Shown: positions 8,355 through 52,994 of the stretch, piece by piece
Numbering within the stretch: position 1 is the first letter of the stretch
Layout of the letters: the number at the start of each line of letters is the position of its first letter
Source of the DNA: a virus
Strand: one strand, 5' to 3'
Virus record (IMG/VR): IMGVR_UViG_3300034071_001262
Length of the DNA: 64,000 nucleotides
Notes under the pieces: generated by a model
The model's database searches: none
Seen by the model: only the letters and a program-made list of their open reading frames with translations
Told to the model about the DNA's origin: nothing
Program-made: the position numbers and the translations under genes

Positions 8355-11300
8355 TTACTCTAAATAACCTCTAGTAGTTAGTGTGGTCAGATTGCTTTGT
8401 GGTTGTTCAATGTATAACGAAAAAGTTCCAGTAGATGGTGTTGGTCCTAATACACACAAATCAGTAGATCCACTACCATAAAATGCTCCACTAATTGCTG
8501 TAGTAATTGTAGAAGTTGGATTTAAATCCTTAATAAATAGTCCTAGCGCATTAGCAGTTGGTCTTTCCATATAAAGCGACATACCACTAGCATTCGCAAT
8601 ACTGCCAACAACATTTAGTGTTTGATATTTTTCAGAGGCAAAAAATGAGCCTGCATCATTGTTACCAGTAATTGTTGTTATTAAATATCCAGAATGTATG
8701 TATGCGCCATCTTCTGAGATTTCTGGAATTGGTGCAGAAATAAATATGGTGGCATCTGTGTTTAAGTATTCACGATCTGGACCGTTTATATATAACGAAT
8801 GAGAATCAAATGTGTCATAAACAGACGATGGTCTAGCGTTGATGTGCAGAGTATTGCCTACTGCCTTATATTCAGATCCAGAGGAAACTACAAAACTGTC
8901 AATAAATATTGATGTTGCATTATTGGCGTATGCGTCTTTGCCAATAAATAGTGGTGTTGTTCTATATATGTCGCCAAGTATAGCGCCGCTAGTACTAAAG
9001 AACATGCCGCTATTATTAATTATATCATATCCAACAATAACTGTATTTATACCAGTGGCTCTATTGATATGCCCGGTTACAATTAAACTAGCTGAATTAT
9101 TGTCCATAAATATTCCACTAGTTGTTAGTGTTGTATTTATGGTTGCGTTAGTATATCCTCTAGTATACAATTTAGCTGTATTAGTGCGTATATTTTGTCC
9201 ATAAGTATTTAAATTAATACCAGACGCGCTATTAATTGCTGATGATGTCCATAATGTAGTATTGATGTTATATATATCTTTACCAGTAATATTGGTTGTA
9301 AATTCATCAGAATTAATTTGTATTTGCGAACTAATATATAGGGTGGTTGCGTTGTCGTTGACATATTCTATATGTAATGGCATATCGCCCAAGCCAAAAT
9401 TACTAGCAGCTACTAAACTTAATCCACTAGATATAATTTCTTTACCATAAATGCTAGTTAATAAAGTATCATTTAGTATCTCATGTGATAGTGTTTGTAA
9501 TGTTAAAGTGTTGTTTTTTGCCGGTGGACCGCCAATAAATAATGTAAATCCAATTGGCTGAACATCCATTATAAATACTTTTTGTAAATCAAATGTGAAA
9601 TTAGAATTATCGCTACGTGTTCTAAATTCTCTTACTAGGCCCAGCTTTCTAGTTGAATTACCAAAATTTAGCCTCTTCATAGATAATACATGCTGAGATC
9701 TGGTTGTTATTGATGGGTTGATCAATACTGGATCATATGGTTTAGTTTCGTTTTCTATGTTGGCTCTAGCTTCATTAAGAGTAGTATATTCTGATTGAGT
9801 ATAAGCTAAACTAGCAACTAATGTTGAGCCATTTGACAAATTATGTATCAATCCATTGCCAGCAGAAGAATTGGAAAAAGTTATCGGTGTATTTTTATCT
9901 ATAAGTACTATATATGAGCCAAAATTATTTTGACTATTTAATGTATAACCAAGCGGCAAAGAAATATCATTAATAGAATACTGATCTAATAGAGCGATAT
10001 TAGAGCCTTCAATATTAAATAAATAAACTTTTCCACCATTAATCTCATTAGAGCCAGAGCCACCGGGTTCAGATATCGCGGTATTACCATCCATGTAATC
10101 AAAATCAAAACCAAATAAGCAATATTCTTTATCTTCGATTCCCGAACTAGTATAGTTATTTAGATTTGCTATCACATTGGAAGATGTATTGCCTTTACCA
10201 TACATGGCACCAACATAATTCCAAGTAGAAGATCCAGTTGGAAGACGATATATATAAACTGCACCAATCGCATTTGGATTATGTGGTTGTGTTAATGTAT
10301 TAAATACAAATGGGTCAAATAATTGTGCGCCAATCAACATAATATGACTGTCAGAACGATATTCATTATATATCTTTAATGGAATACCAAAACCAGCTTT
10401 CTTTCTAGAATCAGAAATATATGGTGAATTATTTGTATTTGTATAATATTGAACATCTGGATGTTCTGCATAATCTATAACTACTTGTAATGAACTATAA
10501 TTTTCGCTAGCTAACAATCTACAAATTTGCCCCCATTGTCCATTATGTCTTTCGAAATATAAATCATCTTGACAGAATGCAAGATTGTATGCTGCGGAAT
10601 ATTTGCTTTGATCGTTTCCACTTTCTTGTAGAATATAATAATGATAATGATCTACATAATAAGTTGTTTGACCTACAAATGATGTAACATTAGATGTTCC
10701 TGTCTGTAAATCAGACAGTTTGAATAATATAATTACATTGAACGTTTTTGTTTCATTCGTGGTTCCAACACTATAATACAGTCTTACTCGTAAAGAAATT
10801 GCACAAGTATTAAAATCAGAAATCTTCAAATCGTTAACGACTATAGAAGATAAAGAATCATCAATGTTAGAATTAGAAAACACACCAGAGAAATATGACT
10901 TTAATTGTCTTCTAATAGTAACAAATGAATCACCAAATGGTAAATCAGTTATACCATTTTTACCATATAATGAATCTGATGCTTCCGATGTGCCGGGAAC
11001 AACTTTTGCCAAGCCCATGCTAATTTTAGATATAAATTGTACATTCTTGTTATCTACTATTTTATAGATATCTATATCTGCGATATCTTCATTTTTACTT
11101 CCGAGAACAAAATATCTGCCATTAGAATCATATATATCGCGTTTTAATAAGTGATTCAACTGCCCAAAATTTGTTATAGATTCGTCACGATAAAATGCTC
11201 TTGTTGCATTATTATCAACATCACTGATCTGTGTAATGTATGCCGCATTATTACTTTCTAGTAACTTATTTTGTGAACCGAGATATACATTTGTCGCAGA

Positions 11301-14300
11301 AATCGATTTTGTTTTTTGTAAAAATTGATTACTACTAGTTAAAGAAACTCTGGTTAATGAGTTTGTAGTTGTAGAGCTATTATTATATGTTAAGGTTGTG
11401 GCATAGGTTTCTGGTAAATGGGAAATGTCTACAATAGATTCATTTCTTTGTAGATTAAAATTGTTTTCTCCATTATTAATATTGTTTGCAGAGTCTATAA
11501 AACCATCAATATATAATGTGGTTTGATGATTAATGGGTCTTTCAGTATCTATAATTGCTAATGTAGTGTGTTTAGATTCTGCTTCAAACTGTGTACCTAT
11601 AAACAGTGGTGCGTCTGTAGTTATAACCTCGATTGTTGGAGTAAATGATAAAGTAAATGATTGATTAACAAATTGCGCGCCCTCAACATTTAATGTATGA
11701 ATATCTGTTACTGGTCTATTCATAACCAAAGTTGTAGCATTATTTTGTGATGTAACACCATTAACAATTAAATTCGCAACACCAAAATCATAATCTAAAC
11801 CACGAGTCACAAGTCTAAATGTATTGTTGCTATACGCCAAACCGCGAGTATTTAAAGGTATACTTGATGGTGCTAAAACTGGTCCAAGAACCACTAATGG
11901 AATTTGTCCAGTGCCTAATGGTTGAAAAGTAAGCGTGAGACTATTATCAATGTCTGGAGTAGTAATTGATAATGGCATAATAGCCGATGGAGCAACTTCA
12001 TATGTAAATAATGACATAAACTCAAAATTTGGTGCCTCAATATTAAGAGTAATGCCAGTTTGTATAAATGGTTGACCAATAAATAATGAAAAGGCTGTTG
12101 GTGTATTAATTTTTTGCAAACCATTTACATATAATGTGGTTTCTAATCGCTTTGATTTATCTTTGATAAACAGAGTTGTCGCAGAAATCTCTTGTTTTAA
12201 TGCGCCAATATATAATGGTAAATAATCCAAGTCAAGAATATCCATAGACCCAAGTAAATTATTTGCACCAATATAAGCAGATCCAAGAACACCGCTGATG
12301 CTATTATAAGTTTGTACTTTGTCTTCATTTAAATCAATATAAGTTGACGTATTAATATTTTCGCCAATACCAGCTATACTATCAGATGATATAATCTGTA
12401 CTGATTTATTAAAGGTTCCTTTATCGTTAGAACTAAATCCTGTATTTGATTTAGCCACTCTAATTATTGGATTTTTACTTTGTCCAAATAGATGATTACT
12501 AATGCCCGGTTGGTTGTACTCAGTGAGAAGTAATTTACGATCTCTAGTTATACCAACCGGTAATGGCACAAATTCATATTTGCCAAAAGAATATCTATCA
12601 ATTCGTAAATTATTGTTTAGTATATTTCTTTGTACGTCATCATAAACCGCGTTATTATATTTAAAATATGCAATTTTATTGAATACACATTGCATTTTTC
12701 TTTTATCAATATTACGAGACTCTATATTTGCACTAATATCTAATATGGTAGCAGAAAAATCAAAATTGATCAAATTATTTAATACTGGATAAATTGATTT
12801 TTGTTCTATAGATGTAGTTGCCAAAACAGTATTATATGAATACTTATAATCATATATATTTAAGCGTTTATCTGGAACAGATCTAAAAAAGTTGAATAAT
12901 GGACCGTCTGCCGACTGTGAACCTATTGGACTAGAAGCAGCATAATTAACATTATCTACTGTGCCTAGTAGTATACCCAATGCAAGAGTTTTATTAGATG
13001 AGATATTGTCTACATCATAAGTCTCATGATTAATATCATTGATATAACCTTGCGACCATGTACCAGATATTGGATTTGATAAATTACTACTTGGTGTAGT
13101 AGAAGATATTGTACCATGATTAATATTTGTAAAATCATTAATAAATGGCCTATTGTCTTTGCTTGACTTAAGAAAATTACCTTGATATATATACTGTGAC
13201 CATATACTATATGGTATAGTGAATGTAATAGTATTATCATCTGTTGGAGCTATATTAGTATTGGCAATAATTGTACCATACATCGACACATTAGCAACAT
13301 CTTGTCCATCGTCTCGTAATAAGTTTATCACATCATTAGAAACATACGATATTAAACCTTGTTTAGTATTTACGTCATATGTTGCGTCATATAGCTGTCC
13401 AAGAGTAATTAAACCACCATAATAATGATTAAGTAATTCTGTTGGTATTGCTTCTATCAAGTTTGGAAAAGCGCCTAATAATGTAGCTTTATATTCTTTT
13501 ATAGATGATGCACTAAGATCACCATAAAAATGCAAATCATGCGCACCACCCCTAAACATTGGTGGACGTGTCACGGATTGTTTCCAAGTAATTGAGTCAT
13601 CATTTGGATTAGTTATTCTTCTGTGTGTTGAGCTATATACAAACTTGCCATCTTGCAAAGTGACAAAGCCAGTTGTTGGAGTTGTGGTGGTATTACCAAT
13701 TACACCATTTGGTATTATTGTTTGTCTAGGGTCTTTTTTATACAGAACAATACGTGGTAATAAATTATCAAATGCAAAACTATCGATTATAGTTTCTCTA
13801 TTACTAAAATTATTTACATTAATTGTTTCAAAAAATCTACGTGATAAATTATCAAAAACTAATGTAATATTTAAATTGCCATATACATCAATATTAGATT
13901 CTGGAATATTAAAGAAAAATACTGGAGTTACAGTTAAATTATTTTGTAATGATAAAGTATTACTACTGGTTTGATTGAAGATAGATGTATCTCTAATCAA
14001 GAAAGAACCATGATCTGAATAATCGTAATATATTTCTCCAGCCTTAAATATTTCAGAAAAATATAAGTATGGTGATATATCATATGAAGCACTACTATTT
14101 AAAGTAGAAAAACCAAATCTAGAACTATAAGAATAATCTATAGCAAATAAAGAGTATCCTACTGGATCCCTTAAGATAACTCTGCTATCTATAGCGTCAT
14201 AACTGTTTACAAGTCTAACATTCCAAGTTCTAGACTGTAAAGTAAAATTATCATAATGTATATTTCCAATATTTAATAGACTATCTTGATAATCAATCAA

Positions 14301-17300
14301 AAATTTGTCTGTATACTTTTCACTAACATCACCGGCATTAAAAGATGGAAAAATATTTTGTAGAAACTCAGCATTGTTTTGATTTGTAATCTTGAATACG
14401 GATAAAGAATCAACTCTATATGAGCCAATTGCAGAACCATCAAGAAGTGTTGCTATATCTTGACCAAATTCATTTTGTGTAACCATTGAGTTAGTTACAA
14501 GAATACCATCATTGTATCTAATATTCCATCCAAACCCATCTCCAACAAATTTTGCATCTGATCTACGCGGTGTAGTAAATTGTTTTGTTATTTGTCCAAT
14601 AGGAGTTAATGAATTATTATTGTAGTTGTATCTCAAAATATTAATCTTAGACTTGCTTTCTGATAGTATCTGATCACCCCAAATAAGTGTTCCATCTTTG
14701 AATAGAATTTTTTGAGCAGATAAAAACATACTAGACTTTACTTCATTAATCCCATCACCGGCATATGAACCGGTGCGTAATTTATAGTGCTGTGCGTCTG
14801 GTATTCTTTGAGTTGGATCATTGTCTACATTATATGAATCAACGCTACCACTGCTGTTAATTTCTAAAAGTTTTACTGTACGATAATCTGAACCAAGTAT
14901 AATACATGATATTTGACCAATTTCGCTTTTTGTATCAGCACTAGTTAAAGTAAATCCAATATTATAGCTATATCCTTGTGTAACATTAATATTAGATCTT
15001 ACTGTAGACGATGAAAAAATTGGTAGATTACCGTTGGTTGTTTTTTCTCCGATACATACGCTTTTACCAAAACTATCAACCCAAGGCACAATATGTAATT
15101 GTGATTTAGAGTTAGTACCAAGTCCAAATCTATCTATTATTGGATAAGCTGTATATGTTGAAGATATTGTGCTTTCACCGAAATAACTTCTATTTTTATT
15201 AAAAATTGGTTCGGTAGAAATATAGTTTCTGTTTAAATCTGGTATAAGATAATCACGATATAAAGTAGATAAATTTTCATTAATAGTACTATTGCTATAA
15301 TAGTCGTATATATTGGGACCAAACCAATTGGCTATTGCCGCTCTATACCAATAAAGTGTGGTTGATGGAACTGTGCCAATTTCATTAACAGTAATAATCT
15401 TGCCATCGATTCCATTAGCTTTATATGTTATAGTGTTTGCTATTCCTGCATGAAAATCTATATATGGACCCATAAACTGATCCATCATATATATTAATGG
15501 ATAATGAGACTTAAATGGAAAACTACCATTATATGATAGTAAACTATATCCATCTCCAAATATAGTATTTTTATGTGATATGTCGGTAATTCGGTTATAT
15601 TTATCAACCGTCATAGTTAATACATGAACTTTACCATGTGGAGCAAAATATGGCACAATACGCTGTTTAAAAATACTGAATATGTCGGCGTTGGTACTTT
15701 CTTGAGAGTATGGTATAACGCCACCATCTATCTTGATTTCGTTGGCTTGACATCCAAATAAATCAATAGAAACATCAGAACCCTTTTCTCCAACAACAAT
15801 ATTATATATTTTACTGTCGCCAATATTATGAGAGAACTTAACATCTAAAGAGCATCCAAACTTGTTACCAAGATATGGTCCAGATAGATCGTATGCACTT
15901 AAATATGGCCCACTATTAAGTTCAAAAGAATCACTATCTGTATTATATTTTCCAAGTTCTGTCTGTGAATGATATGGATATAGCTCTTGAGATCCCTTGT
16001 GTGGAACGCCAAAAGCGGATTTACCAAAAATTTTATTTGGGATGCTGGTAATAAACTCTGAAATTAATTTTCCAAATACAGTTTTATTAGATGTCAATGT
16101 AGGTATGAACCAGTTGCTTCCAGTTGTAAAAAACTCACTAACAATTTCTTCATAAATATCTATATCCTCAGACAAATCTAATACTATAGACTTTATAGAG
16201 TTTTCACGATCCCAAGATGTTAGATCGCTATTCAGTGAGGCGTCTGAAATACGCTTATCGGTTATAAACGAAGAAGGACCAATATTTAAATCAAGATTAG
16301 AAGCAAATCTAAAAGAGTAATCTCTATTAGTAAAAGACATATAACCATTTCTGCCAGTTGGCGAAAATAGTGTTTTATAATAAGACCATCCTTGACCAAA
16401 TGTGCCATTTACGTTTCCAATACAGCACCACTGAATACCATCTACAGATTTAAGATTGTTAGCACTAGATGGACTTTCTAAAAACTGATCGTCGTATAAT
16501 TCAAATGTATTATCATCTATATACTTTACAAATTTTTCTCCATTAAGTGGATGAATATCTATTGCTCCAGTTTGTTCACCATCAAATAAAGCAGAATCAA
16601 TTTTAATTATATCATGATTTTTTAATGAATGTGCTGGTGAGGTAAATCTATTACCAGTAAATCCAGATACTATTCCACTCTTTCTCACATATATATCTAC
16701 TTTGCCACATTTTCTTGCTGGTTGTAACTTAATTAGAGTCACTTTTGCTGAATGCGATGTATATACAATGCCCTCTATTAATCCAATATTTGTAAAAATT
16801 TGTGAAATAGTTTGTGGATCTAGATCGGGCAATGAAGTTCCAGAACCCTGTGTGTTTGATTGAAAATAATTTAGTAAAGCATTTACAGATAATTGAATTG
16901 TAGTTATAGCATTGTCGTCAACTTCAACAAAATCTGATTCATTAATATTTGAAGCTTCTCCAAACGCGCCGCCACCACTATATAATATATTTTTTCTTGT
17001 AGAATATGTTACAACAAAAAATTCTCCAGCATAATCTCCATCAGCAAAATTTAAATAATTTACTGGACAAAAGGTATTATCAAATCTCTCACCAGTGGAC
17101 AAATCATAGTTGTTGCAGTAGCGAATAGTATTCGCGGTAGGATAATCAGCAAAAGTCATTGTATTCCTAAGACAACCACCATATGTAAAATATAGTGTCT
17201 TTTTAGGTAATGACGGATCATTAAACTCTACTTTTAGTATTGTGTTATCATATGTGGCAAATCTATTAGATAATCTATAGTTTATATCTAAAGACTCAGT

Positions 17301-17918
17301 TGGACCATAAATAGATTTTACTTTATGCATCAATGGTAATTGATTATTCTGAAAAACCAAAGATGCATCATAGTCTCTAAAATAATTAGTGGTAATTGTA
17401 TCATAACCTAAACTCGATTGATATCTATATGGTTGATATAGTGTTATTTGACCAAGTTCTAAATCTTCTCGATTTAAATCAGAATAATCTTCATAAGAAA
17501 CAAAAGCTATATCGTCTACTATATTAATATCACTTACTGACCAACTATCAATAAATGATACTTTATTTTGTTTGTCATTAGTAATAGATTGAGCTAGCGG
17601 TATTTTAACGTCTGGACTAATTATACCATCATTTACACCAAGATTAATTCTATTAGTATATTCGTAGCTCGTAGCTATTCTATTTTTTACAGAATACAAA
17701 AGAGTGTTTGGTTGACTATCTTCAAATCTAATTCCTTTATTACTATCTATAGAATTAGAAATATGATTCCAGTTTGTTACTTGTTTTATTCCTTCACCAA
17801 TGGTTTTAATACCTAATGGTAAAGCTCTTTTTTCCTTATCAGTATTTCCATCAGAATCGGACTTCATAAAAAGAGAAGCACCGGTCTGAATTTTATCATA
17901 CTTGAAATAATCTTGCAT
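8355..17918 (-). CDS. Giant virion structural/adhesin-like protein
   Basis: 3187 aa. FG-GAP/propeller-like motifs (FGCSLDV, FGKSVCIG, GAVYIYR, GGKVYLF), an FCCH-like stretch (TSPAHSL...DDNTFELY) and C-terminal TTL[FY]I.G short repeats. Confidence 0.6.
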   Translation of the reverse strand: MQDYFKYDKIQTGASLFMKSDSDGNTDKEKRALPLGIKTIGEGIKQVTNWNHISNSIDSNKGIRFEDSQPNTLLYSVKNRIATSYEYTNRINLGVNDGIISPDVKIPLAQSITNDKQNKVSFIDSWSVSDINIVDDIAFVSYEDYSDLNREDLELGQITLYQPYRYQSSLGYDTITTNYFRDYDASLVFQNNQLPLMHKVKSIYGPTESLDINYRLSNRFATYDNTILKVEFNDPSLPKKTLYFTYGGCLRNTMTFADYPTANTIRYCNNYDLSTGERFDNTFCPVNYLNFADGDYAGEFFVVTYSTRKNILYSGGGAFGEASNINESDFVEVDDNAITTIQLSVNALLNYFQSNTQGSGTSLPDLDPQTISQIFTNIGLIEGIVYTSHSAKVTLIKLQPARKCGKVDIYVRKSGIVSGFTGNRFTSPAHSLKNHDIIKIDSALFDGEQTGAIDIHPLNGEKFVKYIDDNTFELYDDQFLESPSSANNLKSVDGIQWCCIGNVNGTFGQGWSYYKTLFSPTGRNGYMSFTNRDYSFRFASNLDLNIGPSSFITDKRISDASLNSDLTSWDRENSIKSIVLDLSEDIDIYEEIVSEFFTTGSNWFIPTLTSNKTVFGKLISEFITSIPNKIFGKSAFGVPHKGSQELYPYHSQTELGKYNTDSDSFELNSGPYLSAYDLSGPYLGNKFGCSLDVKFSHNIGDSKIYNIVVGEKGSDVSIDLFGCQANEIKIDGGVIPYSQESTNADIFSIFKQRIVPYFAPHGKVHVLTMTVDKYNRITDISHKNTIFGDGYSLLSYNGSFPFKSHYPLIYMMDQFMGPYIDFHAGIANTITYKANGIDGKIITVNEIGTVPSTTLYWYRAAIANWFGPNIYDYYSNSTINENLSTLYRDYLIPDLNRNYISTEPIFNKNRSYFGESTISSTYTAYPIIDRFGLGTNSKSQLHIVPWVDSFGKSVCIGEKTTNGNLPIFSSSTVRSNINVTQGYSYNIGFTLTSADTKSEIGQISCIILGSDYRTVKLLEINSSGSVDSYNVDNDPTQRIPDAQHYKLRTGSYAGDGINEVKSSMFLSAQKILFKDGTLIWGDQILSESKSKINILRYNYNNNSLTPIGQITKQFTTPRRSDAKFVGDGFGWNIRYNDGILVTNSMVTQNEFGQDIATLLDGSAIGSYRVDSLSVFKITNQNNAEFLQNIFPSFNAGDVSEKYTDKFLIDYQDSLLNIGNIHYDNFTLQSRTWNVRLVNSYDAIDSRVILRDPVGYSLFAIDYSYSSRFGFSTLNSSASYDISPYLYFSEIFKAGEIYYDYSDHGSFLIRDTSIFNQTSSNTLSLQNNLTVTPVFFFNIPESNIDVYGNLNITLVFDNLSRRFFETINVNNFSNRETIIDSFAFDNLLPRIVLYKKDPRQTIIPNGVIGNTTTTPTTGFVTLQDGKFVYSSTHRRITNPNDDSITWKQSVTRPPMFRGGAHDLHFYGDLSASSIKEYKATLLGAFPNLIEAIPTELLNHYYGGLITLGQLYDATYDVNTKQGLISYVSNDVINLLRDDGQDVANVSMYGTIIANTNIAPTDDNTITFTIPYSIWSQYIYQGNFLKSSKDNRPFINDFTNINHGTISSTTPSSNLSNPISGTWSQGYINDINHETYDVDNISSNKTLALGILLGTVDNVNYAASSPIGSQSADGPLFNFFRSVPDKRLNIYDYKYSYNTVLATTSIEQKSIYPVLNNLINFDFSATILDISANIESRNIDKRKMQCVFNKIAYFKYNNAVYDDVQRNILNNNLRIDRYSFGKYEFVPLPVGITRDRKLLLTEYNQPGISNHLFGQSKNPIIRVAKSNTGFSSNDKGTFNKSVQIISSDSIAGIGENINTSTYIDLNEDKVQTYNSISGVLGSAYIGANNLLGSMDILDLDYLPLYIGALKQEISATTLFIKDKSKRLETTLYVNGLQKINTPTAFSLFIGQPFIQTGITLNIEAPNFEFMSLFTYEVAPSAIMPLSITTPDIDNSLTLTFQPLGTGQIPLVVLGPVLAPSSIPLNTRGLAYSNNTFRLVTRGLDYDFGVANLIVNGVTSQNNATTLVMNRPVTDIHTLNVEGAQFVNQSFTLSFTPTIEVITTDAPLFIGTQFEAESKHTTLAIIDTERPINHQTTLYIDGFIDSANNINNGENNFNLQRNESIVDISHLPETYATTLTYNNSSTTTNSLTRVSLTSSNQFLQKTKSISATNVYLGSQNKLLESNNAAYITQISDVDNNATRAFYRDESITNFGQLNHLLKRDIYDSNGRYFVLGSKNEDIADIDIYKIVDNKNVQFISKISMGLAKVVPGTSEASDSLYGKNGITDLPFGDSFVTIRRQLKSYFSGVFSNSNIDDSLSSIVVNDLKISDFNTCAISLRVRLYYSVGTTNETKTFNVIILFKLSDLQTGTSNVTSFVGQTTYYVDHYHYYILQESGNDQSKYSAAYNLAFCQDDLYFERHNGQWGQICRLLASENYSSLQVVIDYAEHPDVQYYTNTNNSPYISDSRKKAGFGIPLKIYNEYRSDSHIMLIGAQLFDPFVFNTLTQPHNPNAIGAVYIYRLPTGSSTWNYVGAMYGKGNTSSNVIANLNNYTSSGIEDKEYCLFGFDFDYMDGNTAISEPGGSGSNEINGGKVYLFNIEGSNIALLDQYSINDISLPLGYTLNSQNNFGSYIVLIDKNTPITFSNSSAGNGLIHNLSNGSTLVASLAYTQSEYTTLNEARANIENETKPYDPVLINPSITTRSQHVLSMKRLNFGNSTRKLGLVREFRTRSDNSNFTFDLQKVFIMDVQPIGFTLFIGGPPAKNNTLTLQTLSHEILNDTLLTSIYGKEIISSGLSLVAASNFGLGDMPLHIEYVNDNATTLYISSQIQINSDEFTTNITGKDIYNINTTLWTSSAINSASGINLNTYGQNIRTNTAKLYTRGYTNATINTTLTTSGIFMDNNSASLIVTGHINRATGINTVIVGYDIINNSGMFFSTSGAILGDIYRTTPLFIGKDAYANNATSIFIDSFVVSSGSEYKAVGNTLHINARPSSVYDTFDSHSLYINGPDREYLNTDATIFISAPIPEISEDGAYIHSGYLITTITGNNDAGSFFASEKYQTLNVVGSIANASGMSLYMERPTANALGLFIKDLNPTSTITTAISGAFYGSGSTDLCVLGPTPSTGTFSLYIEQPQSNLTTLTTRGYLE

Positions 17919-20900
17919 TATATTCTGAACCTTCTACTTTCAGCATCCATCTGATTTGTAATCTCTTGAGCAACCATTTGCCCAATAGAAGAAGACAATT
18001 CCTGTTTAATTGATTCTAAATTCAAGCCACCTAAAGATATTAATCCCTCAACAGTGACAGTATGTTCCATAGTTATTCCAGTTAGCGATTGTGCTAATGA
18101 GCCAAATGCAGTTTCGATGCCACTAAACTTCTGTACAATATTATCAAGAGAACTACTGAAATTTCCCACAAACGCATTAAATACGTTACTTAATCCGCTA
18201 GTATCAATGGGTATTGGTCCCATTGCTGCTGTTGGCGATGTAGGTGCTGTAGGAGTAGCAGCAACCGCAGCTGGCGCAACTGGACTATCAGAAGTACCAT
18301 ATCGGGCAGAATATCGGGCAGCGGCATTGTATGCTGCGGCGTTTTCTGGCTGTGCTACGAATGCTGATTGTGGTGCAGAAATAGTATAGGATTCATTACC
18401 AGACATCCTTATCTGATATTCCTGCCGTGGTTCGGCAGCAACTTGAGGTAATTGCGCTGGTGCGGCAGCAACTTGAGGTAATTGCGCTGGTGCGGCAGCA
18501 ACTTGAGGTAATTGCGCTGGTGCGGCAGCAACTTCAATTCCCTTTTTACGACGTAATTCTTCTTGTTGTTGTTGCTGCTGTTGTTTTAATTGGTTAAAAA
18601 CTCTTTCTTCTTCTTTGTTTTTTTCTTCTTTGGTTCCTTTAAATCTTTTCGCTGCTCCAGATGCTCTCGCTCCTATTGTTTTATCACTTAGTCCTTGTCT
18701 TTGAAGAGATTGTTGCACTTGATATTCAGCTATTTCTTTGGCCCTATCTTGTGCTGCTTGTTTTTTCCTAGCTTTATCTTCTTCAAATCGTTTTTTATTC
18801 GCGGCAATCATTTCTTCTCTTGTTTGTGGAGCAGCAGGGGCTTGTGCTGTAGCTGGTTTTTGTGGTATATTTACTGCTTGAACTGCTGCTGCTCCAGCCG
18901 CTACAGCTGCTTGTCCTGCCACCACTTGATCGATACCGGCGGCTGGCTGACCGGGTGGGACCGCTGGCAATGGCGCACCGGGTCTTGCTGTTCCAGTGGC
19001 ACCTAATTCTCTAGCTCCTGCATTCACTCTTTGTTGTGCTGCCTTAGTTTTTTGCTCTTCAAATGCAACATTAGCTCCACCAGCTTCACGAATTGTATTT
19101 GTTAAATTATCTAGTGCATTTATCAATTCTTTTTCTTTATCTGTCTGACCATATAACGCTCTTAATACTTTAGGATCTAGTCCTAATCTTACTGCATCGC
19201 GTTGAATGATTTCTTCTTTTACTTGAGCGCCTTTAAGTGTACGACCTCCACCAATATTAAAATCAAAGTCTTTCAGCTTATCTAGAAGATCAAAAGTAGA
19301 CTTTCTTTGTTCTGGTGTTTGATTTTGTATAGTGCCAGTTTTAATTGCTGCTTGTACACCAGCAAATGCTTGATTAATAGCCTTACGTTGATCAGCACCA
19401 CCAACAACAAACTCTTCTACTAAACCCTTACCTGTTTCTCTTTTTTGTCTTTCTTTATCTATTTCACCTAATATATCAGCAGCTTTATCACTTTGATCAG
19501 TAAGACGATTTAACTCTGCTGTGGTTTTCTCTATTATATTGTTTAGTTCTATTTCTCGTTTAGCCCTATCAGCTGTAACTTTACCAGCCTTGATATCCGC
19601 CTCTATTGAAGCTCTTTCTTCAAAAGCTGCGGCTCTTGTAGCGGATAATTGCTGAACATTTCCAGCTTGTAATTGATTGCCACGAACATCTTTTAGTCCA
19701 CGTAATCCGACTTGTGCCTCTTGTACTCTAAATGACTCTTTTTGATCAGAAGTTAATTCTGTGCCTCTTGCCTTTGCTCTTAATTCTTCAGTCTTAGCAA
19801 CTAAACTAACTAATTTTTGTCGAGCCTCAATTTCTTTATCTGTTTGATCTTTTAGTTGTTGAACAAAATTTTGATATATAGAAATAGCTTTATTTTGTTG
19901 TTCATTAAATCTATTTAGTTGTTCAGCTGACGCTTTACCCTGTTCTACTAATGGCTGTATGAGTGATTGTGCTTCATCAGCCTGTAATATACCATCTTCA
20001 AGATTTTTATTGAAATCTTTTTTAAAGTTTTCTAATGCTGGCCCTAAAAAGTCTGGTTGTAAACCAATCTCTGCTAAAAATTGTTCTGGTGTTGGTTGTT
20101 TCTCTTTGGTTGTAAATTTTACACCAACTAGTTGTGACTGTGCTGTCTTTTTGATAATCTCTGCTGCCGTTTTTACGTTTTCAGCTAGTCTCGCGCCCTC
20201 TGCACCAAGTCCAGCCGCTATATTATCTACAGCAGCACCGAAGGCAGCGGAATCACCAACATTTTCTAAACTTGTTAATCCTTCTGGAGCATCAAGAGAA
20301 AAGTCAAAATTTGCACCAGATAATAAAGAATCTAAATTAGATGCTGATTTGGCTAGTTTATTGAGAGCATTATCTACATTTGTTAAAGAATTAGCTACAG
20401 CATTTATCTCAAGTAGTTTTCTTCTAAATTCTGCATTAGCTGCCGTAGTAGCGGCTAATTCTTCTTTAAATCTTTTTTGCTCGTCTACTAATGATTCTAG
20501 ACCAGCCTTTTGATCAGATAAACGCTGTTGTAATCTTTGTTGTTCGCTATTGATTGCTTTTTGTAGTGATGCTCTTGTTTCATCTGTGGTCGCGCTATCT
20601 TTTTGAGCCTTTAATACTGCAATTCTAGCCTCTGATTCTGCCCTAATTGCAGATTGTGAAAGAGTAAATGCTTGTGCTAATTGTCCACCATTTTTTAAGA
20701 GATCATCTAATGATTCATCACCAGTGATTTCTACTTTAGCGGCTTCTTCCAATGTCTTTCTGGATTCTGCTACGCTTTGTGATAAAAACTCTAAATTTTT
20801 GGCTAAACTTTGTTGTGCATTATTAAATATTTGTCGCAATTCTGGATCATTTTCAAAGTCTGATTCTTGTAATTCTCCAATGCTTTTTCCTTTTTCTCCT

Positions 20901-23900
20901 GCTAATCTCTGTAACTGTCTATTAGATTCAGAAATAGCTAGAGATGGTAATGTGCTTACACCTGTTTGAGCAGTAATTCTTCTTTGTATTCTAGTTTCTG
21001 GTGTGAGATTTTTTTCTATATCAATATCTTGCAATGATTGTTTAAATTTTGCTTGTGCCTCTGTAGATTCTGCTAGTAATTTGCTACTTAATTCTAATTC
21101 GCCAGCATATTTTCTAGATATTTCAGCCAAGCGCTCTCGTTCTTTTGCTTCTGCTGTTGCTGCGCCAAGCCATGCACCTAATGCTGCACCAATAATGATT
21201 CCAAATGGGCCAAATATACCCAATATAGCAGCACCTAATACGCCACCTATTAATGCTCCAATACTACCAGCATCTTTTGCTGATGCTTCATTTTGTTTAG
21301 CTACTTGTTCTTTTTGTAATCTAATAAATTCTTCTGTTGATCCTGTAAGATTTGCTATTGCGTTTAATTGTGCATCTGATGCTTTTTTAAGTTCTTCTGC
21401 TTGAGCGCGAGCTACTGCTGCTTGATATTTAAAAACAGCTGCAATGGCGATTACGGCAGCTAGAGCAATAAATATTGCGGCAGCGAGTCCTATTAATGCT
21501 GCACTAGCTGCACCAGATGCCCCAGCTTCAGCAGTATCTGCGGCAGCTGCCACAGTAGATCCTGTGGCTTCTATGCCATCTGCTACAGCCGAAACACTAG
21601 AAAGAACAGCTTCACTACCATCAGCTACTCCAGCACCAACACTAGCAACACTTTCAGTAGTATCAGCAGCAGCACTTAAACCAGAAGCAGTAGTTTCAAT
21701 TGCATCGGCAGCAGAACTAGCAGTTGAAGCAGCAGTTTGGGCAAACATAGAAGTAATTAATTGACCAATAGTACCAACAATACCAACAATACCAGTAACA
21801 AATCCAGCAGTTTCTGTAATGGCTTGTTTTTGTACATCGCTTAATCCAGACATTTGAGTCGCTAAAGCGGCTGCTGCCGCACCAAGAAATACGAATTGTT
21901 GTGCCGCACCAAAACCAGCGTCTAATTTTTCAACAGTAGAACGTCCACCACCACTTCTACCGCCGTTGCCCCTATTAGCTGCGCCACCACCACCGCCACC
22001 ACCACTACCGCCACGATTAGCATTTGCTGCCAAGACAGACTGTTTAGCAACTTGATATTCGGCTGTGGCTTGTTGGGCGAGTGCCTGCCTTATTCTTTGT
22101 TTTTCTTGATTAATATCTGCATCAGTTTTAAATCCTCTTTTTTGTAGGGCTTCTTGGCTTGCGAGAACATTTAATTGTGCTTGATATTTAGCTGTTATAT
22201 ATTGTTTCAATTTAATCAAAGTTTGATCTTGCTGGGTACTTCCAGTAGCGGCTGGAGCAGTAGGAGTTGCAGTAGTGGCGCTGGATTGATTTGTGGCTGT
22301 CGCACTTTTAATTTTTGCTGCTGTGTCTTTTTCAAGGGCGTCAATATATTCGTCAACCTTACTCTTTATTTGATCGTCTGTGGCGCCAGATTCTTGAAGT
22401 TTTTTAATACGTTCCGCATAAGCTCCTGCTAATAATTCTTGCTGTCTATCAGATCTTTTATTTGCGGAGTCATTCTTATCAATTGATACTTTCAATTTTT
22501 CACCAGCATCTCCAAGCATATCCATTATGCTACGATTAATATTTATGGCATTACCCAAGGAAGTTACACCAGTAACCAATTGTCTAAGGGCTACTCCACC
22601 AAAATCTAATAAACCAAAAGTAGCCTTATCCAAAGCGGCCATAAACTTATTACTACTTCCACCCAATGGCACGAAAGAAGAGAATATAGTATCTTCACTT
22701 TTACCACCCTTCGCAAATCTCTGAACTATGCCACCGTTTGCATATTTACCAACTTTATTCATTCGGCCAAGATTGCCATATCCTATTGATTGTGCTGATT
22801 TTTTGTTGATAACAAATTCGCCGGGTGTCAATAAAGCTGGAACTGTGTCAGTCCCAACCCCACCACCTAAAGCAAATCTTTGCACCCTGTCTGCCCTTGG
22901 ACCTTTACTTCTCATGGCATCTAGCGCCGGTTGCTTACTACCACCTTGAGTAAATATCATATTTGCTCTTGGTATACCAAATAGATTACTAAGATAATCT
23001 TCAGCACCCTTTACTCTTCTAGATTTGCTGATAATACTGATTTTGCGTGGATCAATTTGTCCACTTTTGATGGCGTTTTGTAGCTCTTGACCAAATTGAG
23101 TTAATGAAGAAGATTTTAGGTCTTGTAATCTTTTTGCTTCATCCCTAAAATATGTTTGAAGAACTGATTGTTGGGCTTCTGGAGTTTTAGCTTTAGCATA
23201 AGCTATGTCACCAACTGTTCGTTTTAGAGTACGATCAATATCTACAGCGCCGCCGCCAGACTTTATTAACGCTTGAATAGCAGAACTTGGTTTTGGTAAT
23301 ATAGAACCAGTGGCCTGTAATATATCATCAACCATTGGGGCTGTTGCCAAACCACCGGCAGCAAATTTTCGAATTATTCCTCCTAAGAATTTTTTTTGTT
23401 TTCTAGCAGATACTCTTTGTTCAGCGGTTGATGCCTTTTTTCTATTTTCTATATCTGAAGTAAATCCACCAACATTTTGTGATATTAGTTCATTGGCTAG
23501 TGTAGATCTAAATCCTTCTACAAGTTTATTTGTACCTTTTTTTGCTAAACTTCCAAGAGAATCTTCAGAAAAAGTTCTTTTGGCGTCTGATATTAAAGAT
23601 GAATCTAAATTAAATATTTGACCAGCAGACCCAATACCAGAAGGAAAATCGAAAGTGTCATTTGGATTAATTTTATTTTCAGTAAATGGAGAATTAGACA
23701 AACCATTAACAAAAGCTTCAAAAATTCCACCTTCTATTTGTTCAATATTAGCTCTATTTAAAGCAGCACTAAACTTACCAGAATCAAATGGTGGATTATT
23801 TTTAAATGTCTGAGAAGCAAAAGTATTTGAAAAATTTGCTAACGCTGTATTGATACCATTTTTATATTGTTCAGAAACTGTTTTAGATAATGAGCCAGAT

Positions 23901-25777
23901 GTTATACCTATGGACACACTGTTAAATTTTCCAATTAATTCTTGAGTTAAAGTTTTAGTGGCAGATTTTCCAAGACCAGAAGTAACGGAGTTTAGCATAG
24001 AATTAATGCCAGATTTATCTATTCCTGCTACAGTTTTTCTCATTATCCCTTCTGGTTGTAAAAACACACCACCAATATCTAATTCTTTGTCTTGAGGATC
24101 TTTATCTCCAGCGGCACGAATAACAGCTTGAATTTGTTGATCATTTATCTTGAATGTAGAACTGACACCATCTGATTCTAATTTTTCCTGTAAATTTTTT
24201 CTCGTTCCCTGTTTTCCACCCTTTTGGAATCTATTCTCATTCATAGCAGCAAGATTACTTGCTCCAATTTTATTAACACTACTTTTTCTGATTACAAATT
24301 CGCCCGGCTGTAACATTGCTGGAACAGTATCTCTATTTCCAGTACCCGGAACAAAACCACCGCGAGCAAACTGTCTTATCACGCCACCACTAGCACGACG
24401 ACGAACACCACCACTAAAACCAAGTAATGCGGTTAGGCCGGGTGCCAACCCCTGACCAACTTTAAGTGCTAACAGGCTTGTCAATAATGGTAATACTGGC
24501 TCTAATGCAGATCCTATTTTAATTAGTGCGCTAGCCAGATCCAAGGCACCAGTAGCTATTTCTCTAAAAGTTGAACTATTTGCTAATTGACGAATCAATG
24601 CAGAAAATTCTTCACGTACTTTTTGTGCCTGAACAGCTAATGCTTGTTGTGCTGTAATAGCATCTTCCGCCACTGAACCCGAAGCGCCTTGCGCGACATT
24701 TAAAGCATCTTGTGCAACGGTAAATTGTTGGATAAGTGGAATAACCTTACCAATTTGTCTAAATCCACCAAGTTCTTCAACAATAGATGAGAATCTAATA
24801 TCTCTTGGATCTAGTGCTGAAAGTCCAGCAGATAATCTTTTTACAGCCTCAAAAGCGCCAACGAATCTTCCTTCGGCATCTCTAAGCGAGATCCCCAATG
24901 ATTCAAGTTGTTGTACTGTTTCTGTTCTTTGAATTCTTGTAAAAATAGTTCTTAAACCAGTAGCAATTGTTTCTGCCGATTCTCTCGTTGTAGCGCGTAC
25001 TGATGTAAATAGAGCAATTAATTCGTTTACACTACCGCCAGCAGCAGCAAACACGCCACCTGTACGACGAATAACTGTAATTAAGTCGGATGATTCTACA
25101 GCAAACGCTTTTGATACAGAGTTAATAGCATCTAATGTGGATTCAAGAAATTTAACATTGCCACCAGCAGCAACAGCCTCATCACCAAACTGTCTAATGA
25201 CAGCAATTGCGCCTTCTACTGTTTCTGTGACATCTTCAAATGATGGACCTAGTGTTGTTTTAGCAAGAATATCTAAAGACTTTCTTGTTTCCTCGGCAGA
25301 GAAACCTGCCTGTGCTAATGTAATAGCAACATTTAATAATTCTTTAGAAGATGCGCCCAAGGATGTAGAGAGTCTGGTGACTTCTTGACTGACACCCTCA
25401 AGTTGTTTTACAGTATTTCCAGTAACCTGAGACAATGTGACCATTTGTCTTTCAAATGCGATGGCATCACCAACAGCACGTTTAACAGCTTGTGCAAATG
25501 AAAGCATTGTGCCAGTAGCTAATGTAATCACACCAAATCTACGGGCGGCTTCAGAAAGGTTTCTATTTAAAAAGCCAAAACTAGTAGCAGCATTTCTAGC
25601 GCTACCATTTATATCAGATAATGATCTATTAACTTGAGATAGGGTTCTAGTATTAGCTTCTACGCGAACATCTACAGTCACACCCTGCAATTGACTACGA
25701 ATTTGTGATATTACTTGGCGAGTATTGGTTGGTGCTTGTAGCTGTAGCTGTGCTGTAAGATTAAACCTTTCTCCCAT
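17918..25777 (-). CDS. Tail tape measure protein with inserted domains
   Basis: 2619 aa, Ala/Gln-rich and helical. TP901-like core (LAQAGFS...ATGLRTIFTRI), hydrophobic segments and FAxGG/DTVPAxLxPGEFV motifs; lies downstream of tail tube and chaperones. Confidence 0.9.
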   Translation of the reverse strand: MGERFNLTAQLQLQAPTNTRQVISQIRSQLQGVTVDVRVEANTRTLSQVNRSLSDINGSARNAATSFGFLNRNLSEAARRFGVITLATGTMLSFAQAVKRAVGDAIAFERQMVTLSQVTGNTVKQLEGVSQEVTRLSTSLGASSKELLNVAITLAQAGFSAEETRKSLDILAKTTLGPSFEDVTETVEGAIAVIRQFGDEAVAAGGNVKFLESTLDAINSVSKAFAVESSDLITVIRRTGGVFAAAGGSVNELIALFTSVRATTRESAETIATGLRTIFTRIQRTETVQQLESLGISLRDAEGRFVGAFEAVKRLSAGLSALDPRDIRFSSIVEELGGFRQIGKVIPLIQQFTVAQDALNVAQGASGSVAEDAITAQQALAVQAQKVREEFSALIRQLANSSTFREIATGALDLASALIKIGSALEPVLPLLTSLLALKVGQGLAPGLTALLGFSGGVRRRASGGVIRQFARGGFVPGTGNRDTVPAMLQPGEFVIRKSSVNKIGASNLAAMNENRFQKGGKQGTRKNLQEKLESDGVSSTFKINDQQIQAVIRAAGDKDPQDKELDIGGVFLQPEGIMRKTVAGIDKSGINSMLNSVTSGLGKSATKTLTQELIGKFNSVSIGITSGSLSKTVSEQYKNGINTALANFSNTFASQTFKNNPPFDSGKFSAALNRANIEQIEGGIFEAFVNGLSNSPFTENKINPNDTFDFPSGIGSAGQIFNLDSSLISDAKRTFSEDSLGSLAKKGTNKLVEGFRSTLANELISQNVGGFTSDIENRKKASTAEQRVSARKQKKFLGGIIRKFAAGGLATAPMVDDILQATGSILPKPSSAIQALIKSGGGAVDIDRTLKRTVGDIAYAKAKTPEAQQSVLQTYFRDEAKRLQDLKSSSLTQFGQELQNAIKSGQIDPRKISIISKSRRVKGAEDYLSNLFGIPRANMIFTQGGSKQPALDAMRSKGPRADRVQRFALGGGVGTDTVPALLTPGEFVINKKSAQSIGYGNLGRMNKVGKYANGGIVQRFAKGGKSEDTIFSSFVPLGGSSNKFMAALDKATFGLLDFGGVALRQLVTGVTSLGNAININRSIMDMLGDAGEKLKVSIDKNDSANKRSDRQQELLAGAYAERIKKLQESGATDDQIKSKVDEYIDALEKDTAAKIKSATATNQSSATTATPTAPAATGSTQQDQTLIKLKQYITAKYQAQLNVLASQEALQKRGFKTDADINQEKQRIRQALAQQATAEYQVAKQSVLAANANRGGSGGGGGGGAANRGNGGRSGGGRSTVEKLDAGFGAAQQFVFLGAAAAALATQMSGLSDVQKQAITETAGFVTGIVGIVGTIGQLITSMFAQTAASTASSAADAIETTASGLSAAADTTESVASVGAGVADGSEAVLSSVSAVADGIEATGSTVAAAADTAEAGASGAASAALIGLAAAIFIALAAVIAIAAVFKYQAAVARAQAEELKKASDAQLNAIANLTGSTEEFIRLQKEQVAKQNEASAKDAGSIGALIGGVLGAAILGIFGPFGIIIGAALGAWLGAATAEAKERERLAEISRKYAGELELSSKLLAESTEAQAKFKQSLQDIDIEKNLTPETRIQRRITAQTGVSTLPSLAISESNRQLQRLAGEKGKSIGELQESDFENDPELRQIFNNAQQSLAKNLEFLSQSVAESRKTLEEAAKVEITGDESLDDLLKNGGQLAQAFTLSQSAIRAESEARIAVLKAQKDSATTDETRASLQKAINSEQQRLQQRLSDQKAGLESLVDEQKRFKEELAATTAANAEFRRKLLEINAVANSLTNVDNALNKLAKSASNLDSLLSGANFDFSLDAPEGLTSLENVGDSAAFGAAVDNIAAGLGAEGARLAENVKTAAEIIKKTAQSQLVGVKFTTKEKQPTPEQFLAEIGLQPDFLGPALENFKKDFNKNLEDGILQADEAQSLIQPLVEQGKASAEQLNRFNEQQNKAISIYQNFVQQLKDQTDKEIEARQKLVSLVAKTEELRAKARGTELTSDQKESFRVQEAQVGLRGLKDVRGNQLQAGNVQQLSATRAAAFEERASIEADIKAGKVTADRAKREIELNNIIEKTTAELNRLTDQSDKAADILGEIDKERQKRETGKGLVEEFVVGGADQRKAINQAFAGVQAAIKTGTIQNQTPEQRKSTFDLLDKLKDFDFNIGGGRTLKGAQVKEEIIQRDAVRLGLDPKVLRALYGQTDKEKELINALDNLTNTIREAGGANVAFEEQKTKAAQQRVNAGARELGATGTARPGAPLPAVPPGQPAAGIDQVVAGQAAVAAGAAAVQAVNIPQKPATAQAPAAPQTREEMIAANKKRFEEDKARKKQAAQDRAKEIAEYQVQQSLQRQGLSDKTIGARASGAAKRFKGTKEEKNKEEERVFNQLKQQQQQQQEELRRKKGIEVAAAPAQLPQVAAAPAQLPQVAAAPAQLPQVAAEPRQEYQIRMSGNESYTISAPQSAFVAQPENAAAYNAAARYSARYGTSDSPVAPAAVAATPTAPTSPTAAMGPIPIDTSGLSNVFNAFVGNFSSSLDNIVQKFSGIETAFGSLAQSLTGITMEHTVTVEGLISLGGLNLESIKQELSSSIGQMVAQEITNQMDAESRRFRI
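18433..18534. repeat. Perfect 30-bp tandem repeat (~3.4 copies) encoding VAAAPAQLPQ
   Basis: tgcggcagcaacttgaggtaattgcgctgg repeated directly. Confidence 0.95.
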
Positions 25778-25856: not shown

Positions 25857-26822
25857 TCAAGCCGGTTCGGCTTCTGTTTTTACCGACCTTTTTTTCCTCT
25901 TATTTTGAACATTATTATCGTCATCTTCTTCGCTAGAATCTGATGTGGCAATCGGGCTTCCATCATCGTCTAGGAATGGTTTACGCTCTTTAAGATCTAT
26001 TCTGACCCATTCTTCTTCGCCATCAGCATTGGTAACAGCAACAACTTCTTTGCCATCACGATTTACGAAGTAAACCTGAGATTGATCTTTATTTTTCTTG
26101 CCATCTTCTGTTCTATAGGCAATAAAGCGACCATCTTCATTAATTAATCTTCCATCAATGTCAACTAAGTTACCATCTTTGTCGATCAATTTTAGATCAT
26201 CATTTACAAACTTAAATTCCTTTAAGAATTTATTTTCTTCAAGATTATTTACATAATTAGGATCAAGATTGTAAAGCATGTTCGCTAAAGCAGAAGAAGC
26301 TTCTATAACCCAAGGCTGTGTAGCATTAGCATCATAAGATTCTTGATCTGGAAAGTATTTCTGTTTTGTGTCTGGATTTAACAAACACAGTCTTACTAGT
26401 TCAGCAAATCTAGCATTGTCTGCTTGACCTTCAACAGAATTAGTTTCTAATGCATTTTTTTCTGCAAGAAATATTTGAAAGTCTCCTCTTAAAGAGCGTA
26501 ACTCTAAAGCAATTTGTTTTGCTTCTGATAATTTAATACCACCACCCTTTAATAGATCTTCTTTATTTCTAATATTATCAATATAGTCATCATATTGTTT
26601 TTGCTTGCTCTCACTCCATATGCCCTGTTCTGTCATATAGTCATTGAGCTTTTGTTTAAGCAAACCACCAGAATCTAGTGCCTTTCTAAAGGCTTTATTA
26701 TAGGCAATTTGAGAATCTCTATAGTCCTCTGGTGTTGGCCTTCTAACTAGTACCTTTACGGGTTGATTATTATCATCCACACTTTCGACTAGTCTTTCTT
26801 TGTCTTGAATCTTATCCTTCAT
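25857..26822 (-). CDS. Putative tail assembly chaperone
   Basis: 321 aa, charged; lies between tail tube and tape measure. Confidence 0.45.
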   Translation of the reverse strand: MKDKIQDKERLVESVDDNNQPVKVLVRRPTPEDYRDSQIAYNKAFRKALDSGGLLKQKLNDYMTEQGIWSESKQKQYDDYIDNIRNKEDLLKGGGIKLSEAKQIALELRSLRGDFQIFLAEKNALETNSVEGQADNARFAELVRLCLLNPDTKQKYFPDQESYDANATQPWVIEASSALANMLYNLDPNYVNNLEENKFLKEFKFVNDDLKLIDKDGNLVDIDGRLINEDGRFIAYRTEDGKKNKDQSQVYFVNRDGKEVVAVTNADGEEEWVRIDLKERKPFLDDDGSPIATSDSSEEDDDNNVQNKRKKRSVKTEAEPA

Positions 26823-27198
26823 TTTTATCGTCTCCTTCTTGTTTTAATTGCGATACTGGTAGATTGATCAAGTATTTTTTCCTTGTAATATCATAATTTA
26901 TGAACTCAGATTCTAAGTTTCTAATCTGAGTATTTCCACGATCCAATATTTTGGCGCGAGCGTCTTCATATAATTCTTGTATCTTTTTTTGTTCCTCGCT
27001 ACGTTCACCCTCTGAAATAGATAAGCCCCATAGAAATCCAAAATTTTCCTCTATGGTAGATAGAGCGCCGATCATAGTAGTTTGTATTTTCTTTTTAGAC
27101 ATTTTGAATAATTTATCTCTAGACACTTCTTTATTGCGAGATTCTCTAGCAGCTTTTAAGTCTAGTGATTTTTTTAGAAAATTGTTATAGTCATCCAT
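26812..27198 (-). CDS. Hypothetical protein (tail module)
   Basis: 128 aa, overlaps both neighbouring ORFs. Confidence 0.6.
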   Translation of the reverse strand: MDDYNNFLKKSLDLKAARESRNKEVSRDKLFKMSKKKIQTTMIGALSTIEENFGFLWGLSISEGERSEEQKKIQELYEDARAKILDRGNTQIRNLESEFINYDITRKKYLINLPVSQLKQEGDDKNEG

Positions 27199-48613: not shown

Positions 48614-48869
48614 CTGCGTTTCTCCTTATAATTTCGTTGAAATAAGAGATATAACACGATTCTTTGCCACTTATCTCCTCATGACAGTTTTTGCATAATG
48701 TAATTCCATTAGAGACATCGAATCGTAGTGAAGAAGCAGATGACCACTTTATAATATGATGGACATGAAGCTTCTTCTTTTGTCTACACATTTGACATGT
48801 AGATTTATCTCTCTTCAGTACCTCTTTTCTAAATGCTTCATATGCTGGGTCTTTATAATTTCGCTTCAT
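48606..48869 (-). CDS. HNH endonuclease
   Basis: RD..TCQMC...LHVHHI...NGITLCKNCH. Confidence 0.9.
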   Translation of the reverse strand: MKRNYKDPAYEAFRKEVLKRDKSTCQMCRQKKKLHVHHIIKWSSASSLRFDVSNGITLCKNCHEEISGKESCYISYFNEIIRRNADG

Positions 48870-52077: not shown

Positions 52078-52082
52078 CGATT

Positions 52083-52160
52083 CAAACCCTTGCTGCGTAA
52101 GGACTTAGGTCAACGTAGGCCCGCCGTTTTTGTCGTAAACCCTTATGCCACAAGGACTTA
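52083..52160 (-). repeat. 78-bp element copy 1 (core inverted)
   Basis: CAAACCCTT-7-AAGGACTTA, 28-nt linker with centred GGCCCGCC, TAAACCCTT-7-AAGGACTTA. Confidence 0.95.
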
Positions 52161-52990: not shown

Positions 52991-52994
52991 GAAC

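Follow-up and report, generated by a model that had tools for sequence, protein, structure and literature searches.

How does a tail tape measure protein come to carry enzyme-like domains between repeated glycine-rich motifs, and what may these domains do? The question is raised by P0001, a giant tape measure protein encoded in a 64,000-nucleotide stretch of viral DNA (IMG/VR virus record IMGVR_UViG_3300034071_001262; the whole stretch is called the window, Table 1). An earlier note on this DNA had pointed out eight xGG motifs and two DTVPAxLxPGEFV units in the middle of the protein, and all of them are found in the translation where they had been placed. The explanation that we consider probable is that P0001 is a tape measure with a cassette slot, in which folded, enzyme-like domains are swapped by recombination between conserved joints and delivered early as passengers. 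The slot sits between the N-terminal PhageMin_Tail domain and a set of membrane-like helices. The modules and the short [FY]AxGG joints stay conserved, and the domains between them (in the window: cassettes A and B) are exchanged.

The exchange can be observed directly at the nucleotide level. In the comparison with L067, an ENA contig, the identity is 99.98% over 4,549 nucleotides up to codon 516, and 99.0% over 8,439 nucleotides from codon 808 on. No nucleotide similarity is detectable over the intervening 872 nucleotides, which encode residues 517 to 807, i.e. cassette A. At this place L067 contains 902 nucleotides that encode another allele of cassette A, about 25% identical, with its signature residues kept. 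A second comparison is provided by L001, a divergent IMG/VR phage. Here, the N-terminal part of the gene displays 54-64% nucleotide identity to the window and the C-terminal part 48%. The cassette A of L001 differs from that of the window by 2 mismatches in about 900 nucleotides (99.8% nucleotide identity). Its synonymous divergence (dS) is 0, against 0.95 for module 1, 0.66 for cassette B and 1.25 for module 2. With near-identical flanks in L067 and a near-identical cassette A in L001, the window's gene is therefore a recombinant: an L067-like backbone that carries an L001-like cassette A.

The left crossover lies between N515 and R516, at the last joint and the end of module 1. On the right side, the L001-identical tract stops near residue 820 and is followed by a mixed stretch; the sequence is L067-like again from about residue 860. 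With one crossover at the end of module 1 and the other in the stretch formed by the conserved joint and the first part of cassette B, the pattern is that of homologous recombination, the conserved flanks serving as arms. Chimeric assembly of the window and L067 contigs is unlikely, because the exact protein P0001 is present on 5 contigs, the longest of 147,684 bp.

A third allele of cassette A (in P0003) is found on the same backbone. The three alleles are only 23-33% identical to each other, on backbones that are 98-100% identical. This suggests an arms race, either with a target in the host or with a host defence. The same pattern is typical of specificity determinants, and it thereby favors another explanation, namely that the cassettes are non-catalytic domains for host interaction or immunity escape, with conserved acidic and Lys residues that are structural or metal-binding. 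In that case, the cassettes would touch host envelope or injection factors, or be seen by superinfection-exclusion or defence proteins, and an allele swap would shift specificity or evade recognition. Tape measures are indeed known targets of host factors and of sensing by Avs18 (PMC13581612). The latter was modelled on a central alpha-helical segment of ~130 residues, the most conserved region of tape measures; that paper does not locate this segment in P0001. Whether this explanation can compete with a catalytic one depends on the cassettes themselves, to which we return below.

The relatives of P0001 show the same slot with varying contents. More than 1,700 giant tape measures match this region (E <= 0.001), and the slot architecture was examined in about 180 full-length relatives. 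The contents are U-A-B-U in 85, U-A-U in 41 and U-B-A-U in 27 of them, next to rarer orders. On a tree of 151 N-terminal domains, the state of the first slot changes at least 31 times, compared to a mean of 66.5 for shuffled labels. Both the tally and the count of changes were made with the HMMER filters off; the filters miss divergent cassette A alleles. The earlier proposal that the motifs are shuffling junctions is borne out by this reordering of cassettes across about 150 relatives, together with the nucleotide-level exchange in the window's gene. The cargo at the motifs is not invariant among homologous tape measures.

In some relatives, the domain between the same joints is, by profile match, an ADP-ribosyltransferase (ART, PF03496). 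In P0041 this domain (30.2 bits, cut-off 23.4) occupies residues 966-1182, exactly between the joints at 962 and 1183. P0036 also scores above the gathering score (28.5 bits versus 23.4, residues 1067-1276), and L030:7463-9985 falls just below it (22.6 bits). As for cassettes A and B themselves, an exhaustive search of 1.84 billion representatives recovered them in only 95 clusters, and each cluster that allowed a judgement consists of giant tape measures or their fragments. Free-standing cassette homologues were looked for as well: all short matches that allowed a judgement are pieces of tape measures, cut off at a contig end or mis-called, and many of them contain modules. Outside this set stand two short cassette B-like matches without a module, P0161 (599 amino acids) and P0170 (168 amino acids).

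What, then, is carried in the slot of P0001? An alternative considered by the earlier note, plain helical tape, is not what the models show: both segments are predicted as folded globular domains with a predicted local distance difference test score (pLDDT) of about 90. For cassette A, which that note had placed correctly by its G.IFE, FDFP and DAK elements (residues 523-803, window 23369-24211), the AlphaFold2 model has a pLDDT of 80-96 over model residues 90-310. Its signature consists of G-x-x-F-E, F-D-F-P and (D/E)-A-K. Among 147 instances, the E is kept in 146, the D in 145, the D/E in 144 and the K in 129, at an identity of about 20-45% outside the signature. In the model, E687 is part of helix 221-236 and D731-A-K733 part of strand 273-278, with D710 as a bridge residue. 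This is the ordered PD-(D/E)xK signature, with the E on a helix, the D, and the (D/E)xK on a strand. The residue set has the appearance of a PD-(D/E)xK site and suggests that cassette A is nuclease-like. The resemblance to these nucleases, already proposed from the sequence, is thus upheld by an ordered and near-invariant signature; no sequence family and no convincing fold was matched alongside it.

Cassette B, recognized earlier by its AVDIDRTL and ISIISKS stretches and likewise placed correctly (Table 1), is modelled as a Rossmann-like domain (pLDDT about 90). A first strand leads directly into D846-I-D848-R-T850; then come four helices, a second strand with S-K-S at its end, one helix, a third strand, FTQGGSK and two helices. 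DxDRT, SKS and N-M-x-F-T-x-G-x-x-K-x-P vary hardly or not at all across 125 instances. The ten best Foldseek matches are all HAD phosphatases (AphA, phosphoserine phosphatase; E 0.013-0.045, probability 0.82-0.93). HAD motif I, DxDx(T/V), is present as D846-x-D848-x-T850 right after strand 47-49, and it is kept in 122-123 of the 125 instances. From sequence and model, S917-K-S919 at the end of strand 117-121 and the K after strand 144-146 in FTQGGSK are candidates for motifs II and III; both are conserved. Motif IV, the Mg2+-binding acidic residues (DD or GDxxxD) that follow strand 4 in HAD enzymes, is absent: past its third strand, cassette B has only two helices before it reaches the next RFAxGG joint, and no conserved acidic motif is present there.

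The class B/C HAD (DDDD) acid phosphatases, such as AphA, share with cassette B the DxDxT after strand 1, the helical insert that follows, and the S/T ending strand 2. They differ in that cassette B ends after the third strand and lacks motif IV (DxxxD). Kinship with E. coli AphA at the sequence level was tried and rejected (hhalign probability 1.7%; 1.2 bits with a hidden Markov model of the 125 members), and a colinear F-x-I-P-x-x-N-M stretch common to both is not significant. The HAD resemblance put forward earlier stands for the DxDxT motif, is hinted at by the fold matches, and falls short for motif IV and for sequence models, none of which was matched.

Taken as a whole, an enzymatic identity of cassettes A and B is plausible. 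Metal-dependent chemistry on nucleic acids or phosphoryl groups is suggested by the invariant E/D/(D/E)xK and DxDxT residues, and in the cassette-slot explanation the cassettes would perform it in the host. These residues also bear on the non-catalytic explanation introduced above. It is favored by the lack of any enzyme family detectable by sequence and of HAD motif IV in cassette B. Against it, the near-absolute conservation of E...D...(D/E)xK and DxDxT, in alleles with an identity of only ~20-40% elsewhere, has the look of a catalytic site. Moreover, cassette B is under strong purifying selection (compared to L001: dN 0.07, dS 0.66), and the same slot of relatives holds a bona fide enzyme family, the ARTs. 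We therefore regard cassettes that only interact with the host or escape immunity as doubtful.

The joints deserve the same scrutiny. Within residues 458-1030 of P0001, [FYW]xxGG occurs 7 times versus 0.43 expected (none of 5,000 shuffles of the stretch reached 7). The xGG motifs are not independent, however. They are parts of two copies of a module of about 65 residues, located at residues 458-525 and 961-1026. Each module starts with FAxGG and a short turn rich in Gly, continues with DTVPAxLxPGEFV and a helix-like stretch that has MN at its end, and closes with [FY]AxGG. The repeat is too short to be detected by a BLASTP self-comparison of P0001. A profile was built from 67 modules of the window and 30 IMG/VR loci (alignment A1), in which three positional types of module, each conserved across phages, can be distinguished. 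Module 1 is found at residues ~440-525 in nearly all related loci. The double joint KFLGGIIRKFAAGG between the cassettes is kept at the protein level in the alternative cassette A alleles, and [FYW]xxGG motifs bracket cassette B at median distances of 4 and 3 residues, irrespective of what follows it.

The module is not peculiar to this family. Alone, it matches more than 25 PHROG families, mostly of tape measures and mostly near the C-terminal end of the profile; module 2 likewise matches PHROG tape-measure families. In an hmmsearch against PDB sequences, the profile hits lambda gpH at residues 723-785 of 853 (8iyk_H, E 9.4e-6) and the tape measure gp16 of mycobacteriophage Douge, in two copies (8zdo_S, E 1.6e-9). 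The gpH-type arrangement is a single copy about 60-130 residues from the C-terminus, ahead of the hub-docking helix, whereas both copies of P0001 are internal. Most relatives have a third module just before the conserved C-terminal ~100 residues, as in lambda.

The match to lambda gpH leads to another explanation: P0001 could be a polyprotein, in which the GG joints and modules are proteolytic sites and a cut at tail maturation or ejection frees cassettes A and B as effectors. Lambda gpH is matured to gpH* and gpHC by a cut in a glycine-rich region near residue ~710, of which the site and the protease are unmapped (PMC12617516). The stretch homologous to the module starts about 10-30 residues after this estimated cut. 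Because it follows the cut and only residues 818-849 of gpH are resolved in structures (PDB 8IYK; PMC10721106, PMC12617516), the module corresponds to the unresolved start of gpHC. In the Douge tape measure structure only 1658-1699 is resolved, and the module is not resolved in any solved tail. Cleavage would also fit the [FY]AxGG joint at every cassette border and the low confidence of the module parts in monomer models (a pLDDT of roughly 40-65 in module 1 and of less than 50 in module 2), by which they would be accessible.

No protease was recognized nearby, on the other hand, and the conservation of the joints is equally explained by a homology-arm or docking role. The natural gene splits that might have marked cleavage sites do not help either. 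The split at the module in L070 (two called genes) is a 1-nucleotide indel in a G run in the PGEFV core of module 1 (L070:3960-4040), probably an assembly error or a pseudogene, and P0130 and P0072 are both truncated by contig ends. The polyprotein is unlikely in our view. Its most far-reaching version is distinctly unlikely: here, the modules and joints would serve as arms in recombination and as cleavage sites in maturation, and the polyprotein would free nuclease-like and phosphatase-like effectors (in relatives, ARTs) into the host ahead of the DNA, with the hypervariable cassette A in an arms race. If the joints were also cleavage sites, they would indicate the place of the cut in lambda gpH and the sequence around it.

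The modules might also be mere assembly elements that dock the tail chaperone, the tube lumen or the hub, in which case the material between them would be a spacer for length or packing with neutral variability. A docking role would suit both the three conserved positional types and the fact that in most tape-measure families a single module lies near the C-terminus, beside the hub-docking helix. A neutral spacer, however, is hard to reconcile with high-confidence globular folds, invariant polar residues and low dN/dS, nor would it be expected to remain 55-90% identical across 35 viral loci, as cassette B does. We consider this explanation very improbable.

The proposed delivery of the cassettes follows from the nature of the protein that carries them. 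With PF10145, P0001 scores 84.5 bits versus a gathering score of 33.2, as a TP901 / PhageMin_Tail tape measure should. Seven of the 8 PHROG families that it matches are tape-measure families. It is also a long, largely helical protein of the virion module with hydrophobic segments at residues 1319-1542, another hallmark of tape measures. These segments have a weak EI24/CysZ match, and near-identical relatives have a Gly-zipper Pfam domain on record. Judging by these matches, P0001 serves as the tail tape measure of an uncultured phage of ~148 kb. For lambda and T5 it is established that the tape measure exits the tail before the DNA does and passes into the host envelope. As passenger domains, the two cassettes would therefore reach the host with the tape measure at the very start of infection.

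Several points weigh against the cassette slot as proposed here. Three to six folded domains of 150-220 residues in register would be too large for the ~4-nm lumen of the tail, and such domains would have to be unfolded, staggered or housed elsewhere. The right crossover lies up to about 50 residues inside cassette B rather than at the GG, and the joints may thus count only as edges of homology. The near-C-terminal module is absent from P0001 and its closest kin (residues ~2450-2619, window 17921-18400). Among the 20 neighboring open reading frames (ORFs), Pfam and PHROG searches recognized no protease domain, including the JAB/MPN and NlpC/P60 types that lambda gpK would lead one to expect.

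The enzyme assignments, too, lack a family match. Cassette A (the window's copy and 45 aligned members) matches nothing in Pfam, NCBIfam, PHROG or the PDB sequences. The same holds for cassette B, alone or in member-by-member Pfam scans (26 homologues). The PDB sequences were compared both with single sequences and with profiles. For cassette A no convincing structural match was obtained and Foldseek against BFVD gave nothing; the ESM Atlas provided no usable lead for the cassettes. As PD-(D/E)xK families are notoriously divergent, the missing nuclease-family match is weak evidence in the case of cassette A.

Table 1. Features of the P0001 gene in the window (aa, residues of P0001)
Feature	Window position	Strand	Basis
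Tape measure protein gene (P0001, 2,619 aa)	17918..25777	(-)	ORF list and translation, PF10145
PhageMin_Tail domain, aa 131-324	24806..25387	(-)	Pfam PF10145, E 1.2e-23
xGG motifs: RRASGG aa 460-465, QFARGG 469-474, RFQKGG 516-521, KFLGG 796-800, KFAAGG 804-809, RFALGG 967-972, KYANGG 1011-1016, RFAKGG 1020-1025			translation
DTVPAxLxPGEFV cores, aa 483-495 and aa 977-989	24293-24331; 22811-22849		translation
Module 1 (gpH-type), aa 458-525: RRASGG, QFARGG, DTVPAMLQPGEFV core, RFQKGG	24203..24406	(-)	module profile, 87 bits
Cassette A, exchanged block, aa 517-807	23357..24229	(-)	nucleotide comparison with L067 and L001
Cassette A, folded core (predicted), aa 547-767	23477-24139	(-)	AlphaFold2 model
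Cassette A signature: E687; D710; D731-A-K733	23717-23719; 23648-23650; 23579-23587	(-)	
Double joint KFLGGIIRKFAAGG, aa 796-809, between cassettes A and B	23351..23392	(-)	sequence
Cassette B, Rossmann-like domain (predicted), aa 811-965	22883..23347	(-)	predicted structure
Cassette B motifs: DIDRT aa 846-850; SKS aa 917-919; FTQGGSK	23228-23242 (DIDRT)	(-)	
Module 2 (gpH-type), aa 961-1026: RFALGG, DTVPALLTPGEFV core, KYANGG, RFAKGG	22700..22897	(-)	module profile, 84.6 bits
Three hydrophobic glycine-zipper-like segments, aa 1319-1346, 1418-1457, 1502-1542	21152..21823	(-)	Kyte-Doolittle scan
Conserved C-terminal ~100 aa (aa 2520-2619)	17921..18220	(-)	BLASTP of the C-terminus against relatives

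Near the C-terminus of P0001, AAAPAQLPQV is present in three tandem copies (residues 2417-2446, window 18440-18529, minus strand). The 99%-identical L067 has one copy of this 30-nucleotide unit, so that the copy number differs between near-identical genomes; this difference explains the dip in identity between the window and L067 at residues 2401-2460.

The genes around P0001 are poorly annotated. Almost every neighbor is without a Pfam or PHROG match, and no family matches were found for the neighboring tail genes. Directly upstream, in the position of tail assembly chaperones, lie two overlapping ORFs of 128 and 321 amino acids (window 25857-27198, minus strand). They have no family matches and are kept in L067, L068 and L070. 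Directly downstream, an ORF of 3,187 amino acids (window 8355-17918, minus strand) overlaps the stop codon of the tape measure gene with its start by one base. It has no Pfam or PHROG match, and its position and size (3,186-3,187 amino acids) are kept in the near-identical contigs L067 and L068. The terminase large subunit (PF03237, 45569-47548) and a weak match to a major head protein are on the same strand as P0001. About 1.3 kb from the terminase gene, also on this strand, a GDP-mannose 4,6-dehydratase gene is encoded (window 48853-49851, Pfam E 7e-115). From ~52000 to 64000, the G+C content of the window rises from ~0.33 to ~0.43-0.47 and the sign of the GC skew flips; this is a region of different orientation and composition in the phage genome.

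How does the slot compare to known systems? Lambda gpH shares with the P0001 family the module of ~65 residues (FAxGG, GEFV core, YAxGG), which in relatives precedes the C-terminal ~100 residues. It contains one module and no inserted globular domains, whereas P0001 has two internal modules that flank cassettes. Enzymes embedded in tape measures have been described in mycobacteriophage TM4 (a peptidoglycan-hydrolase motif, PMC1796659) and in T5 pb2 (a C-terminal peptidase, PMC10038345). As in P0001, enzyme-like domains are built into an ejected tape measure. Theirs, however, are cell-wall hydrolases at fixed positions, and those of P0001 are of other kinds and occupy an exchangeable slot with repeated joints.

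The polyvalent proteins (Iyer et al. 2017, PMC5512222) are also giant and multidomain and accompany the DNA on delivery; their enzyme domains vary and include ARTs. P0001 has two candidate effector domains, relatives have an ART in the slot, and delivery would follow from tape-measure biology. In the description of polyvalent proteins, tape measures are never mentioned and gpH-type joints do not appear. An MPTase processing peptidase is stressed there; none was found by Pfam and PHROGs in P0001 or the same 20 neighbors, where a divergent one could be missed. Finally, the Sle1-type effectors of actinobacterial contractile injection systems (2026, PMC13277306) are also built on a tape-measure-derived scaffold with swappable functional domains. 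They have a single C-terminal domain in a cargo protein of the injection system, in place of an internal slot in a genuine phage tape measure, and gpH-type joints are not reported in the part of that paper considered here. No paper was found that describes repeated gpH-type modules as cassette borders. The window adds the three-parent recombinant at the nucleotide level, the three alleles on one backbone, and the characterization of cassettes A and B.

As tape measures precede the DNA into the cell, any cargo that they carry acts at the earliest moment of infection. An exchangeable slot with enzyme-like cassettes would let large environmental phages vary what gets injected, as a general route. 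The window and its kin amount to an experiment made by nature: one cassette occurs in three alleles on an otherwise identical backbone, and the lineage that donated one of them has been identified, which makes an isogenic comparison of cassette function feasible. The homology of the module to the gpH region beside the cleavage site provides a concrete conserved sequence for lambda itself.

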